The position numbers and the translations under genes were made by a program. Of a DNA stretch of 44,256 nucleotides, positions 569 through 44,220 are shown piece by piece (position 1 is the first letter of the stretch; every line of letters begins with the position of its first letter). The notes under the pieces are model-generated. The model was not told the DNA's origin. It did no database searches and saw only the letters and a program-made list of their open reading frames with translations. The stretch lies in IMG/VR virus record IMGVR_UViG_3300028781_000008; one strand, 5' to 3'. The stretch comes from a virus.

Positions 569-1270
<702 letters not shown>

Positions 1271-1335
1271 GATATGGTTTCCTGTAGGAATGCGAAATGT
1301 GATGTGTGCTGTTTGATATAAAACCAATTGCTGTG

Positions 1336-1644: not shown

Positions 1645-1959
1645 CTAATTGTATGGATCATAATCACCGGAAACAACACTTACAGCATCAATACTACCGC
1701 CGTTATCTATAACGAACTGCATTGCTTGTGCTTCAATTTCTGCAAAATCTATATCTGTCAACTGTTTCTTAACTTCAACACGAATAGTTTCTCGTGTATA
1801 TTCGCATTTAAGAATTAGAAATTCCTCAATTGATTTATTCAATCTACCAACTAATGTCATTTCTTCAATTTCATCCCACTCTCTAGCATTAATCATTGTG
1901 TAGAGTGTTCTAGCTTGAAATGAAGTTAGCTTAAGTCTTAACGTATTTTCATCGCTCAT
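1645..1959 (-). CDS. Hypothetical protein (104 aa, acidic)
   Basis: The track ORF 1645-1971 begins at TTG. The ATG at 1959 follows GGTGA with 5-nt spacing (MSDENTLRLK...). Confidence 0.6.
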   Translation of the reverse strand: MSDENTLRLKLTSFQARTLYTMINAREWDEIEEMTLVGRLNKSIEEFLILKCEYTRETIRVEVKKQLTDIDFAEIEAQAMQFVIDNGGSIDAVSVVSGDYDPYN

Positions 1960-1980
1960 TAGTTTCACCAATCGATATTT

Positions 1981-2293
1981 GGGTACAGGGGATAGGGTAT
2001 AGTACCCGGTTTACCCCTCCCCCGTCAAGCACCAAATTGGTGAATCTAGTATCTGTGTTTTATGCCTTCTTACTTTCTATACCCCCTAACTAACTTATAT
2101 ATAAAGCACTACACTGCGCGTATATTTTAGGGGGTATAAAAAATAAAAATTAAAGATATACCTATATAGTTAGTTATAAGTCTATTAGAAGGCACATAAC
2201 TAACTACACTTTATATACGCCTACAAGTCTGTAATGTGTTCGTAAGGGGAGGAGGGGGTAAAGTACTGGAGTGTACCCGGTACCCTATCCCCT
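1981..2293. repeat. Large imperfect multi-block palindrome with TAACTAACT iterons (candidate origin or structured intergenic element)
   Basis: Collinear inverted blocks: AGGGGATAGGGTA 1987-1999 vs its exact RC at 2281-2293. TTTACCCCTCCCCC 2010-2023 vs GGGGAGGAGGGGGTAAA 2246-2262. TGCCTTCT 2063-2070 vs AGAAGGCA 2187-2194. AACTAACT(T)ATATA 2088-2101 vs TATATAGTTAGTT 2163-2175. There is also an exact 12-bp inverted repeat TATACCCCCTAA 2078-2089 / TTAGGGGGTATA 2127-2138. TAACTAACT occurs at 2087-2095 and 2197-2205 (direct) and 2168-2176 (inverted). Confidence 0.75.
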
Positions 2294-2302
2294 AATCATT
2301 GC

Positions 2303-2956
2303 TCACAAACCTAACATCTCTTCCACACTGACTTCTTTCATAGCCTGCAACTTAGCAATCAATCTAGCTCCAATTCCATCACTTGTATCTACCAATCCGA
2401 GCGCTTTCTCCAATTTACTTCTCTTATCTGCAGCAAATACAGTTCTTCCACCAGCAAGTGCTGCAAAGCAGTCTCTATATACATTGCACATTTGTTGCAA
2501 TTTCTGTGTCTGTTCTTCACTGCAGTCATCACTGATACCTAGTTTCTCCGCAAATGCCAGAAGTAACATATCTTGCAGTTCACTATCGAACCAGTATTTG
2601 ATCTGTTCCCCATTAAGTCTGTCACCTGCAGCTTGCTGCACCAAATAGGATTTCACTGCAGCTACATCGATTTCCTCACTTGTTACTGCATCCTTATCAG
2701 CTACACATGCCTCGCGAATGATTTCATCCTGTACACCATGAAACCATTGGGAGATCTGCGGTGACAGTACTTCATAGTCCTCTGCACTCAGCACTGTTAC
2801 TGGAACAGATACGCACTGACTATCTTTCGCCTTACTTCCTGACTTATCCTTTTTGAATCTCACCACACTTAATCTCTGACCGCTAAGAGCAGTAGATTTA
2901 TCTTTGCCGTTAGAGTTGTAAGTAGTGAAAATGTGACGATCTGAAATATTGCTCAT
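2303..2956 (-). CDS. Hypothetical protein (217 aa), divergent paralog of the 240-aa protein at 38267-38989
   Basis: ATG with GGTG upstream. Segments shared with the 240-aa protein: VRFKKDKSGSK..VSVPVTVLSAED vs MRFSFKSDKETGFK..ELHLPVLSAEG, and a C-terminal tail EVSVEEMLGL vs NISEEEMLAAL. Confidence 0.75.
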   Translation of the reverse strand: MSNISDRHIFTTYNSNGKDKSTALSGQRLSVVRFKKDKSGSKAKDSQCVSVPVTVLSAEDYEVLSPQISQWFHGVQDEIIREACVADKDAVTSEEIDVAAVKSYLVQQAAGDRLNGEQIKYWFDSELQDMLLLAFAEKLGISDDCSEEQTQKLQQMCNVYRDCFAALAGGRTVFAADKRSKLEKALGLVDTSDGIGARLIAKLQAMKEVSVEEMLGL

Positions 2957-2999
2957 TTTTGCACCTATTTAGTATCTAGGGGTTGAAAAAGAAAATAGA

Positions 3000-3027
3000 A
3001 TCTTACAATCTGATTACGCAGTTACAA
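3000..3027 (-). promoter_or_regulatory. Candidate sigma70-like promoter for the 217-aa gene
   Basis: Minus strand: TTGTAA (3027-3022), 16-nt spacer, TAAGAT (3005-3000), about 45 nt upstream of the ATG at 2956. The match to consensus is weak. Confidence 0.2.
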
Positions 3028-3031
3028 GTAC

Positions 3032-3139
3032 TCAATCTGCCCACAGTGGCAACCAATAAATCCAATCATAAGTTAGACCATCAATTGCGAATGCGAATGT
3101 GGCACTTGTGTATTCCAATACATTACCAAAATCATCCAT
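3032..3139 (-). CDS. Small hypothetical protein (35 aa)
   Basis: Hand-translated. Strong SD AGGAG (3150-3146) lies 6 nt before the ATG at 3139-3137; TGA at 3034-3032. Product: MDDFGNVLEYTSATFAFAIDGLTYDWIYWLPLWAD. Confidence 0.4.
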   Translation of the reverse strand: MDDFGNVLEYTSATFAFAIDGLTYDWIYWLPLWAD

Positions 3140-3156
3140 AACAATCTCCTAGTGTT

Positions 3157-3168
3157 GTGAGTACTCAC
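3157..3168. promoter_or_regulatory. Perfect 12-bp palindrome GTGAGTACTCAC (candidate operator)
   Basis: Self-complementary 12-mer at 3157-3168, just upstream (minus sense) of the SD of the 35-aa ORF. Confidence 0.3.
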
Positions 3169-3206
3169 TGCGAATGCCCACAATCCTAGGAGCTAGTTGG
3201 ATCGCC

Positions 3207-3246
3207 TCTCACCTGTCATATGAGTGACAGTCAGTGACAGGTGAGA
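3207..3246. repeat. 12-bp-stem hairpin with a tandem GTGACAG alternative arm
   Basis: TCTCACCTGTCA (3207-3218) is the exact RC of TGACAGGTGAGA (3235-3246). The 16-nt loop contains a second GTGACAG (3224-3230) that could pair alternatively with CTGTCA (3213-3218). Confidence 0.6.
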
Positions 3247-3641
3247 ACTACAAAGCGAATCCACTAGCTACTAGCGGTTTATCAAATTGTCAGTAGCATC
3301 AAGAAATAGCTACCAAGAGCATGCCTAATGGCGTTGGTACGTCGTGTCTGGCATTCACAGACTTACGAGACCCATTACATTTACTCACTACAACTACTAA
3401 CGAAATCTACTCTTTGAATCACCTGCCTTACGAAACAACAAACTGCACTAATATCTTAGGTCATCCAGCAGAAAAATGTTGATATTCTCTAGAGTAAGTA
3501 TTCTATTAATACAGTCTGTAAGCAATATCCATCATTGCTCATGCAATCAATACTTACAACTAGCTAACAGCAAGCCACTAACTGAATGCGAATGAGAATG
3601 ATTCGTACTAGCTAGATGATAATGAGATGCAATTGCGAAGT

Positions 3642-3650
3642 GGGGGGGGG
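3642..3650. repeat. G9 homopolymer in non-coding DNA
   Basis: tggggggggg at 3641-3650. This is the longest G run I see in an otherwise low-GC genome. Confidence 0.9.
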
Positions 3651-3818
3651 TATCGACCTTTTTAGCAAGTGATACCTCCTTTGACCTATGAAACCTCTCT
3701 AAATTTTCTAAAGTTTTTACCTATTTCCTACCAACTTCTTGCCATCTATCACTTTTGATCTACAGCTATCTCTCAAATATTTCCTAGAATCTGACACAAG
3801 CATTTCCAGGATCCCCAA

Positions 3819-3846
3819 TTAGTATCTAACCATTCCATGATAGAAT
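3819..3846 (+). promoter_or_regulatory. Candidate extended -10 promoter for the late (rightward) arm
   Basis: TGaTAGAAT at 3838-3846 (TG at 3838-3839, TAGAAT at 3841-3846). A weak -35 TTAGTA sits at 3819-3824 with a 16-nt spacer. It lies about 26 nt upstream of the SD AGGAG (3861-3865) and the ATG at 3872. Confidence 0.3.
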
Positions 3847-3871
3847 CTAATTATTGAATTAGGAGCCAGTC

Positions 3872-4465
3872 ATGTCAGAAGTCACATCAGCTACATCAAT
3901 CCCAGCATACACTGGTACCCAGGGGCGCGCCCTAGAACTCCTGGGAGATGGAATACAAGCATCCATTGTAGCTCAAACACTAGGAGTAAGTGAGAGTTAT
4001 GTTTCACAACTCCTAGCAGATGAGATGTTTTTACGTGGAGTTGTAGAACGCCGCTATGAACATTTAGCTCGCCATAACAAACGAGATGCAGAGTATGATT
4101 CAGTAGAAGATAAATTATTAGAGAAATTGAAACAAACATTACCATTGCTTTTTGACCCAATGAAAATAGCAAGAGTACTTCAGACTGTAAATGCAGCTAA
4201 GCGACGTGGCCAATCAGATCCAGCTTCCATTACACAGCAAAATGTAATTGTAAATCTCCTAATGCCCACTAAAATCATCGATAGATTTCAAATTACTAAA
4301 GATGTCAATAACCAAATTATTGAAGCTGGCAATCAGAAACTAGTAACTATTGGATCGAATACATTACTTGATAGAGTGAAACAATCTCAACAGAGACAAT
4401 TAGAAGTAGGAGTAGTAAATGGTGAACAGCAAAATGGAATTACTGCTAGTGGAACTTCGAGCTAA
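3872..4465 (+). CDS. Putative terminase small subunit (197 aa)
   Basis: First gene of the late arm, directly upstream of terL, with SD AGGAG. It has an N-terminal HTH-like segment IQASIVAQTLGVSESYVSQLL followed by a charged helical region. Assignment is by position and architecture only. Confidence 0.55.
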   Translation: MSEVTSATSIPAYTGTQGRALELLGDGIQASIVAQTLGVSESYVSQLLADEMFLRGVVERRYEHLARHNKRDAEYDSVEDKLLEKLKQTLPLLFDPMKIARVLQTVNAAKRRGQSDPASITQQNVIVNLLMPTKIIDRFQITKDVNNQIIEAGNQKLVTIGSNTLLDRVKQSQQRQLEVGVVNGEQQNGITASGTSS

Positions 4466-29468: not shown

Positions 29469-29831
29469 TTAGTCCGCTTTATCCAATCTCAATACTGCCA
29501 ATGCATCTGAATATTTCTCTGGATATCTCTTCGCCAATTTTGCGATGTTTCTCAAGCAAACTGTATCCAAATCCATTCCAGTAGCTTTACACATCAAAGC
29601 TAGAAACCACATTACATCTCCAATCTCTTCGCGCACATTAACTACATCTAAGTCTTTACCGTAGATCAAATGTTTTTTAATTGCGTCTACTAGTTCACCG
29701 GCGTCACTAGCAACTCCCAAGGCCGCATGAAGCATATCCATTTCTTCTGGACCAAATCTCTTACCTTCACCGAAGACTTTAGCCGTACGCATTGCGGCTT
29801 CTTCATAATCATCAAATGTATTTGCACTCAT
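29469..29831 (-). CDS. mazG: MazG-like nucleotide pyrophosphohydrolase (120 aa)
   Basis: EEAAMRTA, LHAALGVASDAGELVDAIKKHLIYG and REEIGDVMWFLALMC form the paired acidic helices of all-alpha MazG-type NTP-PPases. SD GGAGG. Confidence 0.85.
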   Translation of the reverse strand: MSANTFDDYEEAAMRTAKVFGEGKRFGPEEMDMLHAALGVASDAGELVDAIKKHLIYGKDLDVVNVREEIGDVMWFLALMCKATGMDLDTVCLRNIAKLAKRYPEKYSDALAVLRLDKAD

Positions 29832-31102
29832 ACTACCTCCAATTTAACTCGAGTAACTACCGGTTGAGCCATAGGGCCTTGCTCTTCACTACTTAAAAAT
29901 CCATAGTCTATTACGTCCGAATATTCAGCTTCCATCATAGATCTTCTAATCAGAAAACCAGATTCAGTCTTCAAAATCTTTCCTGCCATAAGGAGTCCGC
30001 CAATTACATTTCCCAACTCTGATGGTTTCTCCATATCTGAACTAACTGCTTTCCACAAATCTGGCAATGTCATTGTCGACTTTGCATTTTCTAGTGCGCT
30101 CAGAACTTTATGATTTACATTTGAATTTCTACTCTCACCAAATTCACCTAGTGCTTTCGGCATAAGTTTCTCAGTGTGACTCAGAACTGTATTTGCAATA
30201 ACTACGTCTTCTTCAGAAATTTCTAGACTCATTCTAGCCAAACAATGTATAAGCGTGAGTTTAAGAAGATGGGTGAAGCGGCGATTAGTATAATGCTCAA
30301 AACGCACATCATCAATACGATTGTCGCTCTTATATATTTTATCGAGCAGTAACTCAGCAGAATGCGTACGAGTAACAGAACCAGTAGAAGATAGAGATTT
30401 AATTGCAAGTAACTGGTTGACCATACATTGTGTGTCATGATTTGAGACTCTTTTAGGGAAAGTAATTTTGCGTCCGGATGGTTCAGAATATATTAGAATA
30501 AGCCGACTGAAAAAACCTTGACCAATTGTTTGGGAAGGAAACGCAAGACTGAATCCAGTAGAAGTATTTCCTCCGAGAATAGAGATAGTAGGATTACTAA
30601 TAGAAACAGATTTACCATTCTTGATTCTATTTGAATAATTCCCGTTTCTATCCCACAACTCGCCAAGAAGACTGATAAACTCAATATTGCCGTTACCAAT
30701 AAAATTATTAAACTCATCACAAGCAATGTAACATTCAGATATACTTCCATTACCCTCTCCCCACAGATTGTCGTCAATTAATTCTTTCGCGTCACTATCT
30801 AAATCCCCAGCTAAATCTAGAATGAATTTTTCTTTACTTGTCTTTTCAGCACTAAATTTATTAAATCCTGTTCTCTCTAGTAATTCCTTAGCCATTTTAA
30901 TAGATGTAGATTTCCGCGTGCCTGGAACACCAATCAGCATGCAATACATATTAGGATAGATTTGTGAATTACCTAATTCAAAACTAACATCTCTTGCCAG
31001 ATACGCTCCTAGAGCAGAAAGTATTGCCCACCTGTGAAAGAACACTGGTGGCTCAGTATCAGAACGATACTGTAAGTAAGAGGTTATAAAATCTTCTCGC
31101 AT
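29828..31102 (-). CDS. P-loop NTPase, probable replicative helicase (DUF3987/VirE-like by recollection), 424 aa
   Basis: Walker A LIGVPGTRKSTS and Walker B-like IACDEFNNF. N-terminal segment FFHRWAILSALGAYLARDV...MYCMLIGVPG resembles DUF3987-type helicases. I could not recognise a primase domain. Confidence 0.6.
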   Translation of the reverse strand: MREDFITSYLQYRSDTEPPVFFHRWAILSALGAYLARDVSFELGNSQIYPNMYCMLIGVPGTRKSTSIKMAKELLERTGFNKFSAEKTSKEKFILDLAGDLDSDAKELIDDNLWGEGNGSISECYIACDEFNNFIGNGNIEFISLLGELWDRNGNYSNRIKNGKSVSISNPTISILGGNTSTGFSLAFPSQTIGQGFFSRLILIYSEPSGRKITFPKRVSNHDTQCMVNQLLAIKSLSSTGSVTRTHSAELLLDKIYKSDNRIDDVRFEHYTNRRFTHLLKLTLIHCLARMSLEISEEDVVIANTVLSHTEKLMPKALGEFGESRNSNVNHKVLSALENAKSTMTLPDLWKAVSSDMEKPSELGNVIGGLLMAGKILKTESGFLIRRSMMEAEYSDVIDYGFLSSEEQGPMAQPVVTRVKLEVV

Positions 31103-43671: not shown

Positions 43672-44220
43672 CTATCTTGCTATTGTTGCCATGATTGTGA
43701 GACTGGATGTTAGAGTTCCACTAGTTTCACGTTGCTTACATGCATTTCTAGCTTCCCAAATTGACCATACAATTTCTGACCATCGGTTAATACCAGCAAA
43801 GATTGCAGACCAGTCAGTTTCAGCTGGCGGCGGTGGGGCACAAAAATAAAACATTGTATTCCACAAATCTGATTGATTAGAGATTGGAATAGTAACTGGT
43901 TTCAATGCATGTGGTTTCGCTTTCTGGTATGTATACATCTTACTACCGTGGCCAGTCGGAACTATATAGATGCGACTAGAAGCTACTAAATCTTGTAGAT
44001 ATAGATTGAGTGATCCTCTAGTAGTTCCTAACTCTGCAGCTAAATCATATACATTGAATTGATATGTTGGATGCAAACTAGAAATGTATCCAATTAGTTT
44101 GGATTTGAGAGATACATTTCGTTTAGCTTGTTGCTTGGTAGTTTCTGGTGTGAGATTAGGTGTAGAATCTGACAGTGCTCCGCACAATGGATTATTAGGA
44201 TCTTTAATGGTTGTTGACAT
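43672..44220 (-). CDS. Winged-helix-like DNA-binding protein (182 aa)
   Basis: I use the ATG at 44220, preceded by AGGGGA with 7-nt spacing (MSTTIKDPNN). The track start at 44256 has no SD. HTH-like segment: VYDLAAELGTTRGSLNLYLQDLVASSRIYIV. Its 5' end lies inside the 127-nt terminal repeat. Confidence 0.6.
   Translation of the reverse strand: MSTTIKDPNNPLCGALSDSTPNLTPETTKQQAKRNVSLKSKLIGYISSLHPTYQFNVYDLAAELGTTRGSLNLYLQDLVASSRIYIVPTGHGSKMYTYQKAKPHALKPVTIPISNQSDLWNTMFYFCAPPPPAETDWSAIFAGINRWSEIVWSIWEARNACKQRETSGTLTSSLTIMATIAR

Follow-up and report, generated by a model that had tools for sequence, protein, structure and literature searches.

A mirrored, AT-cored palindromic element with a one-sided promoter in the early region of an uncultured podophage family: a candidate replication origin

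The primary origin of phage T7, oriF and oriG of T4 and the ori of lactococcal phage c2 lie in early or middle intergenic regions, where one or more promoters are combined with an AT-rich unwinding element, and transcription aids opening or priming at the origins of T7, T4 and lambda. Among DNA-binding proteins with a ribbon-helix-helix (RHH) fold, MetJ with its 8-bp met-boxes offers a comparison for repeat arrays. These are among the described systems closest to the subject of this study, an imperfect palindrome at positions 1972-2302 of the IMG/VR virus record IMGVR_UViG_3300028781_000008. The whole stretch of 44,256 nucleotides (nt) that was analysed is called the window below.

At OriS and OriL of herpes simplex virus (HSV), inverted sites for the origin-binding protein flank an AT-rich spacer which is bent and destabilised for unwinding, and the arms can form hairpins once unwound (PMC12543377). 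The RHH protein omega/ParB of plasmid pSM19035 binds cooperatively to contiguous 7-8-bp repeats in direct or inverted orientation, usually in at least four copies and with one dimer per repeat, and these arrays overlap promoters (PMC9499535). The parH site of TP228, bound by ParG, is described as an RHH operator/centromere array of short repeats (PMC3130281). The Frpo/ssi elements of conjugative plasmids are imperfect hairpins of about 300 nt with -35 and -10 boxes in the stem, located ahead of early-expressed genes (PMC11541004).

The window represents a complete phage genome in circularly permuted form. Its structural genes point rightward and occupy 3872 to 28061; the genes for early functions and replication point leftward and extend from 2956 across the window start to 28134. 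The palindromic element is located between the first leftward gene (217 amino acids (aa), 2956-2303) and the second (104 aa, ATG at 1959), and it is present in a single copy in the genome. It is most likely a replication origin and/or a control switch rather than a folded RNA. The reading favoured here, at a probability of roughly 0.4, is that of a cis-acting double-stranded DNA site for protein assembly, most likely a phage replication origin that also houses the promoter of the second early transcription unit. The parts of the element are as follows.

1972-2302, no strand: whole non-coding element, an imperfect palindrome centred near 2133, between two leftward genes of the early operon.
2273-2293, minus strand: upstream outer array, three 7-nt units (sense AGGGGAT AGGGTAC CGGGTAC), starting 10 nt after the stop of the 217-aa gene.
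1979-1999, minus strand: downstream outer array (sense TACCCTA TCCCCTG TACCCAA), an inverted copy of the upstream array.
2246-2262, minus strand: C-tract TTTACCCCCTCCTCCCC on the sense strand, mirroring the G-rich promoter spacer.
2163-2217, no strand: inner boxes of the upstream half, with TAACTAACT at 2197-2205 and, inverted, at 2168-2176, plus AGAAGGCA at 2187-2194.
2130-2162, no strand: core, made up of GGGGGTATA, the AT-rich spacer 2139-2154 and GATATACC; least stable DNA of the genome.
2030-2054, minus strand: conserved block upstream of the promoter, with the AGATACTA box at 2047-2054 and the 13-bp palindrome CACCAAATTGGTG at 2030-2042 beside the -35 box.
1999-2028, minus strand: predicted sigma-70-type promoter, with -35 TTGACG (2028-2023), an 18-nt G-rich spacer (2022-2005) and -10 TACTAT (2004-1999).
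1987-1999 and 2281-2293, no strand: block A, an exact 13-nt inverted repeat.
2010-2023 and 2246-2262, no strand: block B, in which 2010-2017/2255-2262 are 100% and 2014-2023/2248-2257 are 90% complementary.
2057-2070 and 2187-2200, no strand: block C, 86%, containing TGCCTTCT/AGAAGGCA.
2087-2095 and 2168-2176, no strand: block D, exact.
2078-2138, no strand: second local hairpin with exact 12-bp arms TATACCCCCTAA (2078-2089) and TTAGGGGGTATA (2127-2138) and with TAACTAACT at 2087-2095.

The original prediction, made from the letters of the window alone, had described the nested blocks A to D, the 12-bp pair and three copies of TAACTAACT in a gap that carries no open reading frame (ORF). All inverted blocks and the 12-bp pair were recovered where it had placed them, exact or 86-100% complementary, and the symmetry centre near 2133 was as claimed. 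The gap held no sense-strand ORF of at least 30 aa in 1972-2302, and the gene after it begins at ATG 1959 or TTG 1971. The copies of TAACTAACT at 2087 and 2197 (plus strand) and 2168 (minus strand) were confirmed and are the only exact ones in the 44-kb genome. The exact 12-bp pair sits within a 23-nt pair (87%). The repeat of block A is exact as described, but it really represents two of the three tandem 7-nt units present on each side. The two features that carry most information were absent from that account: a conserved promoter of the sigma-70 type within one arm, and outer arms made up of tandem arrays of 7-9-nt units that are specific to each clade.

The palindrome exceeded chance expectation, as had been estimated. 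The gapped inverted-repeat score of the region was 45 versus 27 +/- 4.7 (maximum 40) in 100 dinucleotide shuffles, and in a genome-wide sliding scan this was the top palindrome, with a score of 63 against a mean of 30.6 and a standard deviation of 6.0 (5.4 standard deviations above). Folding was also better than that of shuffled controls. For RNA the z values of the two strands were -6.7 and -5.0. For single-stranded DNA they were -4.2 and -3.9, and both strands formed a closed long-range stem (-50 and -47 kcal/mol). In neither case did any shuffle fold as well.

Related loci were retrieved via the 217-aa protein, so that the presence of this gene in all of them is by construction. The protein had 41 clusters of homologs with identities of 30-72%, found only in metagenomes, and 86 related loci were recovered. 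Most of these had an ORF-free gap of 330-650 nt behind the 217-aa gene. A palindrome of 300-600 bp with the same block architecture was present at the same place in 58 of 58 loci having enough downstream sequence; the element is therefore not a chance feature. In 52 loci the long-range inverted repeat within 660 nt after the gene reached a median z of 4.6, with two-thirds of the loci above 3, versus a median of 0.15 and no value above 3 for the coding region just upstream, which served as a control. Six further near-clade loci carried the palindrome too. In three apparent exceptions the element was displaced 0.5-1.1 kb downstream behind extra small ORFs. The sequences of the arms diverged between genomes, while both arms of one genome stayed alike and the layout remained constant. 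A miniature inverted-repeat transposable element or another mobile palindromic element was ruled out, as the element is single-copy, occupies a syntenic position in each of the 58 relatives and has diverged in parallel with the gene beside it.

In a few relatives (L092 2165-2380; downstream regions of L028, L052, L076 and L086) the palindrome is separated from the 217-aa gene by one or more inserted small ORFs, with displacements of 0.2-1.1 kb. Adjacency to the 217-aa gene is thus usual but not obligatory.

When the motif maps of the family were aligned on the symmetry centre and read along the direction of transcription, several mirrored layers appeared. AGACTG/GACTGT at -200 to -120 was mirrored by CAGTCT/ACAGTC at +120 to +200 (likewise AGACTGT by ACAGTCT), CCCCC at -160 to -80 by GGGGG at +80 to +160, and TATCTA at -120 to -40 by TAGATA at 0 to +80. 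GGGGTA stood directly to the left and TACCCC directly to the right of an AT-rich spacer of 16-25 nt; in the window, 4 of the 12 copies of these two hexamers were inside the element. Within family elements CCCCCC was enriched 17-fold, TAGATA/TATCTA 6.7-fold and TAACTA/TAGTTA 5-fold. The TAACTAACT repeats, which had been described as iterons, belong to the TAACTA/TAGTTA class of inner boxes.

The outer arms consisted of arrays of 3-5 tandem repeats of 7-9 nt. Arm periodicity was 0.66 compared with 0.49 in coding controls (p = 3.5e-26), and the period was 8 in 32 of the 39 strongly periodic arms. The unit of the array differed between clades: most have nnCAGTCT, some TGGTCAAT and others GCAGGCAT, and the clade of the window has GTAC-based units. 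Within one genome both arms shared the same unit in inverted orientation. Such a clade-specific unit common to both arms would be expected for sites that co-evolve with a specificity protein. On the plus strand of the window the units read GTACCCG GTACCCT ATCCCCT at 2273-2293 and TTGGGTA CAGGGGA TAGGGTA at 1979-1999. The array motif CCGGGTAC had no copy elsewhere in the genome. The confinement of CCGGGTAC and of exact TAACTAACT to the element fits a single-site function.

A scan for the CAGTCT array pattern gave many unrelated 8-nt repeat tracts in metagenome-assembled genomes (MAGs), without phage homology. The Acidobacteria MAG contigs RPQK01000381.1 (1-340) and RPQK01000506.1 (1-130) contained long inverted arrays of the 8-nt units GACAGACT/GTCAGTCT, which flank a GC-rich spacer of about 110 nt. 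No phage protein homology was present there, and the 8-mer is identical to a far-clade phage array unit. These arrays could be a host repeat family, a clue to the host or a coincidence.

The core is the easiest part of the genome to melt. In nearest-neighbour scans of the 44 kb, the least stable window started at 2138 (30 bp), 2120 (60 bp), 2119 (100 bp) and 2035 (200 bp); at all four sizes it covered the core, with the minimum around 2119-2167. Among the relatives with loci of at least 3 kb, the least stable 60-mer of the locus was inside the element in 37 of 39, where 11% was expected by length (p about 2e-33), at a median of 23 nt before the palindrome centre. The core palindrome was conserved in the near-clade alignment. 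Its orientation flipped between clades, some of which have G...C and others C...G.

A box confined to the sense strand, CCGTAAGA/C, was found 5-60 nt after the centre in 25 of 56 loci (e.g. L072, L024, L006 and L089) and was never mirrored. It is preceded by an AT-rich run, and close relatives have TTGATA 17-18 nt upstream of it; the window has no such box at this place. The box may act as a second promoter or as a site of specific binding or nicking.

The predicted promoter lies in the right arm. In the family it has the form TTGAC(A/G), a G-rich spacer of 17-19 nt and TAnnnT, is located about 100-130 nt after the centre and is aimed at the downstream early genes. About 36 of 52 loci had TTGAC-N17-19-TAnnnT on the sense strand, and 1 of the 52 had it on the antisense strand. 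A generic promoter scan of the window gave no more sites than were found in shuffles; the promoter call therefore rests on conservation across genomes. The predicted start site is about 33 nt upstream of the next start codon, with a GGTGA ribosome-binding site between them. In the family the right-hand array starts within the -10 box (e.g. TACAGTCT...) and extends to about +30; in the window, the downstream array at 1979-1999 covers the end of the -10 box, the predicted start site and the early leader. In the mirrored arm the array (64% identical) and the G/C tract (55%) are retained, but the -35 box is lacking, each of its bases being kept in only 27-49% (37 loci), and the first T of the -10 box is often C. 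Symmetry is thus maintained in arrays and tracts, and the promoter is confined to one side. A mirrored, divergent promoter in the left arm was rejected on the same counts.

The near-clade consensus of the conserved block upstream of the promoter was GAGATACTAGATGCACCAnnnTGGTGCTTGAC, and close relatives share GAGATACTAGAT-GCACCAnnnTGGTGC directly upstream of the -35 box. The octamer AGATACTA occurred 9 times in the window versus 1.95 expected, with 8 copies on the minus strand; its sites are 2047, 2970, 3820, 35558, 42736 and 43079 (minus strand) and three others. Of the minus-strand copies, three fall within the first 2 kb of the early region, including the one in the conserved block. AGATACTA may be part of a regulatory or promoter motif.

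The symmetry could be maintained in DNA or in a transcript, and the spectrum of mismatches between the arms separates the two, as selection on an RNA would tolerate G:U and avoid A:C on the functional strand. Over 6874 aligned arm positions there were 352 G:T/T:G and 339 A:C/C:A mismatches. Among isolated mismatches, with three Watson-Crick pairs on each side, 15 were G:T, 18 were A:C and 63 were of transversion type. Covariation at the RNA level was ruled out by this spectrum, since neither strand had a wobble bias. A search of Rfam gave no match at gathering thresholds and, with relaxed settings, only two chance-level microRNA matches (E 0.4-0.6). No intrinsic terminator (a GC-rich hairpin followed by a T-run) was predicted on either strand of 1972-2302. 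From the balanced mismatches, the flipping core and the lack of an Rfam match or a terminator, we conclude from sequence comparison that the symmetry acts on DNA and not on RNA. The hairpin or cruciform named in the original prediction is thus allowed as a DNA structure, but a selected RNA structure lacks support.

Compared with the described systems, the element is like HSV OriS/OriL in that inverted arrays flank the least stable DNA of the genome. It is, however, 5-10 times larger than these and, more loosely, than iteron origins of the lambda type, and has no sequence similarity to them. The arms of HSV OriS are single boxes of 10-11 bp, whereas those of the element are 3-5 tandem units of 7-9 bp. 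Extra symmetric layers (the G/C tracts and the TAGATA/TAACTA boxes) and a promoter in one arm further distinguish it from HSV OriS and lambda, and no UL9-, O- or Rep-like initiator was recognised among the proteins searched. With the RHH arrays of omega/ParB, parH and the met-boxes the element shares period and copy number and the overlap of one array with a promoter; the three 7-nt units at 1979-1999 form such a promoter-overlapping array. Unlike the RHH systems, it has two mirrored arrays 250-500 bp apart around an AT-rich core. No partition ATPase was found in this lytic-looking genome and no RHH protein was recognised in the neighbours, in contrast to RHH partition systems. Like the T7, T4 and c2 origins, the element is intergenic in an early operon and combines a promoter with an AT-rich stretch. 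Those origins are not large palindromes and have no mirrored arrays, and in T7 and T4 the AT-rich element is downstream of the promoter, whereas in the element the conserved TTGAC promoter comes after the core, about 110 bp downstream, and faces away from it. The likeness to Frpo/ssi lies in the imperfect hairpin of about 300 nt, the -35/-10 boxes in an arm and the position ahead of early genes; the differences are a consensus on the wrong arm, a much larger loop, the context of a double-stranded DNA phage and the lack of plasmid similarity.

The origin reading is based on several lines of evidence. The element is present in all 58 loci, with arms that diverge between genomes and match within each; its motif layers are symmetric and its outer arms are periodic tandem arrays; no duplex of the genome is less stable than the core, and in 37 of 39 relatives the least stable 60-mer of the locus is likewise inside the element; the symmetry is not of the RNA type; and a conserved promoter stands beside the core of an element that heads an operon running into replication genes. 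Inverted initiator sites around an AT-rich spacer are a documented origin design (HSV OriS, PMC12543377). This design, together with the promoter-plus-AT-rich design of T7, T4 and c2, is the reason why an origin is ranked first. Of the features that mark an origin, an easily melted AT-rich unwinding element is present, and repeat clusters beside it are present as a sequence pattern.

At such an origin, a sequence-specific phage protein would bind cooperatively to the inverted 7-9-bp arrays at the outer ends (2273-2293 and 1979-1999). The bound arrays would pair, and the interior of about 250 bp with its TAGATA/TAACTA boxes would loop out between the rigid G/C tracts. Strain would then focus on the AT-rich core at 2130-2162, at which replication proteins could load, i.e. 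the Dda-like helicase, the DUF3987/primase-family protein and the PolA-type polymerase. Transcription through or beside the core, either by read-through from the 217-aa gene or from the TTGAC promoter in the right arm, might aid opening or priming. As the right-hand array lies over the -10 box and the start site, the same binding event would throttle the early promoter.

The comparisons show the palindrome, its layered symmetry across the family, its nature as a DNA feature, the core of minimal stability and the one-sided promoter; protein binding, looping, melting and the start of replication are inferred. Several points weigh against an origin. A recognisable initiator was not found among the proteins searched, and the 217-aa protein had no Pfam, PHROG, PDB or fold match. 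The GC skew inflection that had been proposed as a check did not fall at the element: the skew follows gene orientation, turns near 4.5-5 kb, is uninformative as an origin marker and lends no independent support. An AT-rich block upstream of promoters can be a UP element, and a weaker promoter-like sequence, TTGATA-17/18-TAAGAT, overlaps the core in close relatives. The CCGTAAGA box showed no helical phasing relative to the -35 box (Rayleigh p = 0.68 at 10.5 bp). Tandem 7-8-bp arrays over a promoter form the classic type of operator for RHH repressors, which would explain one arm without an origin. Finally, the element was found in no cultured relative searched, and nothing can be borrowed from experiments for that reason.

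A purely regulatory reading is nearly as good as an origin. The origin proposed in the original prediction gained from the conserved blocks, from folding better than shuffles and from the least stable core, but not to the exclusion of this alternative, which is tentative in its own right. A phage repressor, possibly an RHH protein, would polymerise on the array over the -10 box and start site of the TTGAC promoter, the upstream array about 300 bp away would act as an auxiliary looping operator or as a roadblock to read-through, and the core would be a UP element or second promoter. The promoter is indeed conserved on one strand only, the right-hand array spans -10 to about +30, and the periods of 7-9 bp and the 3-5 copies resemble the promoter-overlapping heptad arrays of omega/ParB (PMC9499535). 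The near-clade first downstream gene with its predicted strand-helix-helix N-terminus and the TTGATA-17/18-TAAGAT sequence at the core of close relatives would also fit. However, control of transcription leaves 300-600 bp of layered symmetry (G/C tracts, TAGATA/TAACTA boxes and core palindrome) in a compact genome unexplained, as well as the genome-wide stability minimum at the centre. Moreover, no RHH family was matched by the neighbouring proteins, the structure model is of low confidence, and the first downstream genes are not conserved in far clades, so that a universal autoregulator is absent from that position.

The other explanations are less probable. A site for DNA processing, i.e. 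for terminase recognition or cleavage (pac/cos) or for another kind of recombination or resolution, appears improbable, and the packaging or recombination site mentioned in the original prediction is accordingly rated unlikely. Arrays flanking a central symmetric site do resemble P1 pac and SPP1 pacL/pacC/pacR, the core offers two half-sites around an AT spacer of 16-25 bp, and the symmetry is at the DNA level. But the small terminase gene (3872-4465) is 1.6 kb away, with a gene and a separate non-coding region of 915 bp (2957-3871) in between, and it is this latter region that directly adjoins the terminase genes. In contigs of relatives the distance between the element and the contig ends varies, and in none does the element itself form an end; the proteins searched included no recombinase, integrase or protelomerase, and the core spacer is far longer than recombinase crossover regions. 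Slightly less credible still is a hairpin in single-stranded DNA, with arms that fold into a duplex promoter as in Frpo/ssi or that form an sso-like priming site. An imperfect hairpin of about 330 nt with -35/-10 within one arm is given, both strands fold as single-stranded DNA (-50/-47 kcal/mol, z about -4), and Frpo elements are structured single-strand promoters in which -35 and -10 pair with complementary regions (PMC11541004). Yet expression of the downstream genes from a single-stranded template would need the consensus on the opposite arm, where TTGAC...TAnnnT is missing from 51 of 52 loci. The loop, at 100-250 nt, far exceeds that of known examples, a blastn search of 72,556 plasmids with 1972-2302 gave no match, and a tailed double-stranded DNA phage is not known to enter as single-stranded DNA. 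A structured RNA in the early transcript, such as an RNase III processing site, a device for long-range translational coupling or a non-coding RNA, is very improbable. The region is inside an operon and would be transcribed in the case of read-through, RNA folding reached z values of -6.7 and -5.0, and the arms change between genomes and remain complementary. Against this stand the missing wobble bias (G:T 352 versus A:C 339; isolated mismatches 15 versus 18 and mostly of transversion type), the negative Rfam search, the flipping orientation of the core, the lack of a predicted intrinsic terminator and the fact that transcripts from the internal promoter would lack the 5' arm.

The genes on both sides of the element are as follows.

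2303-2956, minus strand: upstream 217-aa gene, encoding an orphan protein; the query by which the related loci were found.
1645-1959, minus strand: downstream 104-aa gene (ATG 1959), the first gene served by the predicted promoter.

The 217-aa protein is a candidate partner of the element. It gave no match in sequence searches of Pfam, PHROG or PDB, and its AlphaFold2 model was confident (predicted local distance difference test (pLDDT) 83), yet no fold match was obtained in PDB or BFVD. The 104-aa protein belongs to a near-clade orphan family with the N-terminal strand-helix-helix pattern RPxF[TS][IL]...LYK[IL]L. It is a possible DNA binder, as the predicted order of strand and helices is RHH-like in an AlphaFold2 model with a pLDDT of only 53, which was too poor for a fold search. 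As an RHH repressor it had no Pfam family or PDB match, and only five homolog clusters were retrievable. The fuller near-clade motif is RPxF[TS][IL]..LYK[IL]L...ERLxxSIxxFL, with homologs at L003 3983-4339, L004 4065-4385, L089 2346-2618 and other loci; the ORFs that come first after the element in far clades have no relation to this family. No match to an RHH family was obtained for the neighbouring proteins in Pfam or PDB, and no Rep-, O-, DnaA- or UL9-like initiator domain was found among the proteins searched. A protein resembling single-stranded DNA-binding protein, which had been placed next to the element, was not recovered: neither neighbouring gene matched any PHROG family, and Pfam and PDB gave nothing significant.

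The leftward block codes for a PolA-type polymerase, a Dda-like helicase, a PD-(D/E)XK nuclease, a Sak4-like ATPase, MazG, an exonuclease and a DUF3987/phrog_14296 'DNA primase' protein. The last of these, a 424-aa protein at 29828-31102 (minus strand), matched phrog_14296 with an E value of 1e-71 and Pfam DUF3987, so that the earlier statement that the genome has no primase does not hold. A 252-aa ORF at 569-1327 (minus strand) consists mostly of Ala/Asp/Ser/Tyr of low complexity (AAAAAADAAAA..SYAA) and is encoded by tandem repeats of 9/12/15 nt (DNA 593-917; 20 overlapping copies); a 233-aa version was called in relatives. The 915-bp non-coding stretch at 2957-3871 between the divergent 217-aa and small terminase genes has no ORF above 36 aa, and its counterpart in relatives carries ORFs of 54-94 aa. 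For early promoters, as for a pac/cos site or a terminal repeat, this is the more conventional location.

The large terminase was only 31-34% identical to those of the cultured podophages Aeromonas P5, Polaromonas Tiera and the Pseudomonas 119X/PaMx group. The same phage is present in many public assemblies, and the element region was identical in the two samples of the Joint Genome Institute that were compared. In cultured phages there was neither similar DNA nor a homolog of the 217-aa protein (two different query proteins), a search of IMG/VR returned no relative, and a scan of 185,579 species genomes for prophage or host copies gave no relative either. The cultured Polaromonas phage Tiera, which has the same overall gene order, has no equivalent palindrome and no 217-aa gene. 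Instead, its non-coding region of 780 bp contains, at about 43950-44100, a G-rich direct repeat of about 70 bp in two tandem copies.

The element is a palindromic, repeat-bearing, AT-cored cis-element that is conserved across a widespread family of uncultured phages. The family comprises podophages of about 44 kb from peat, soil and freshwater, which are wholly uncultured and occur in many public metagenome assemblies, and control or replication signals were not previously known for it. With the element as a defined target, the origin and the early promoter can be sought in phage genomes assembled from metagenomes. In addition, the repeat units, which vary between clades and match between arms, lend themselves to reading a protein-DNA recognition code and to a search for the binder by co-variation. 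A more speculative proposal, to which we give little weight, is an undescribed phage origin-and-switch, in which an orphan clade-specific protein (possibly the 217-aa or the small strand-helix-helix protein) would clamp mirrored 8-bp arrays about 300 bp apart, and the clamping would both melt the weakest duplex and shut the early promoter. If this were true, the transition from early functions to replication would be coupled to a single re-programmable protein-repeat code. If the element is instead an operator system, it would be unusually elaborate for a lytic phage; if it is an origin or switch, the few phage origins characterised so far would be joined by one of a new architecture.

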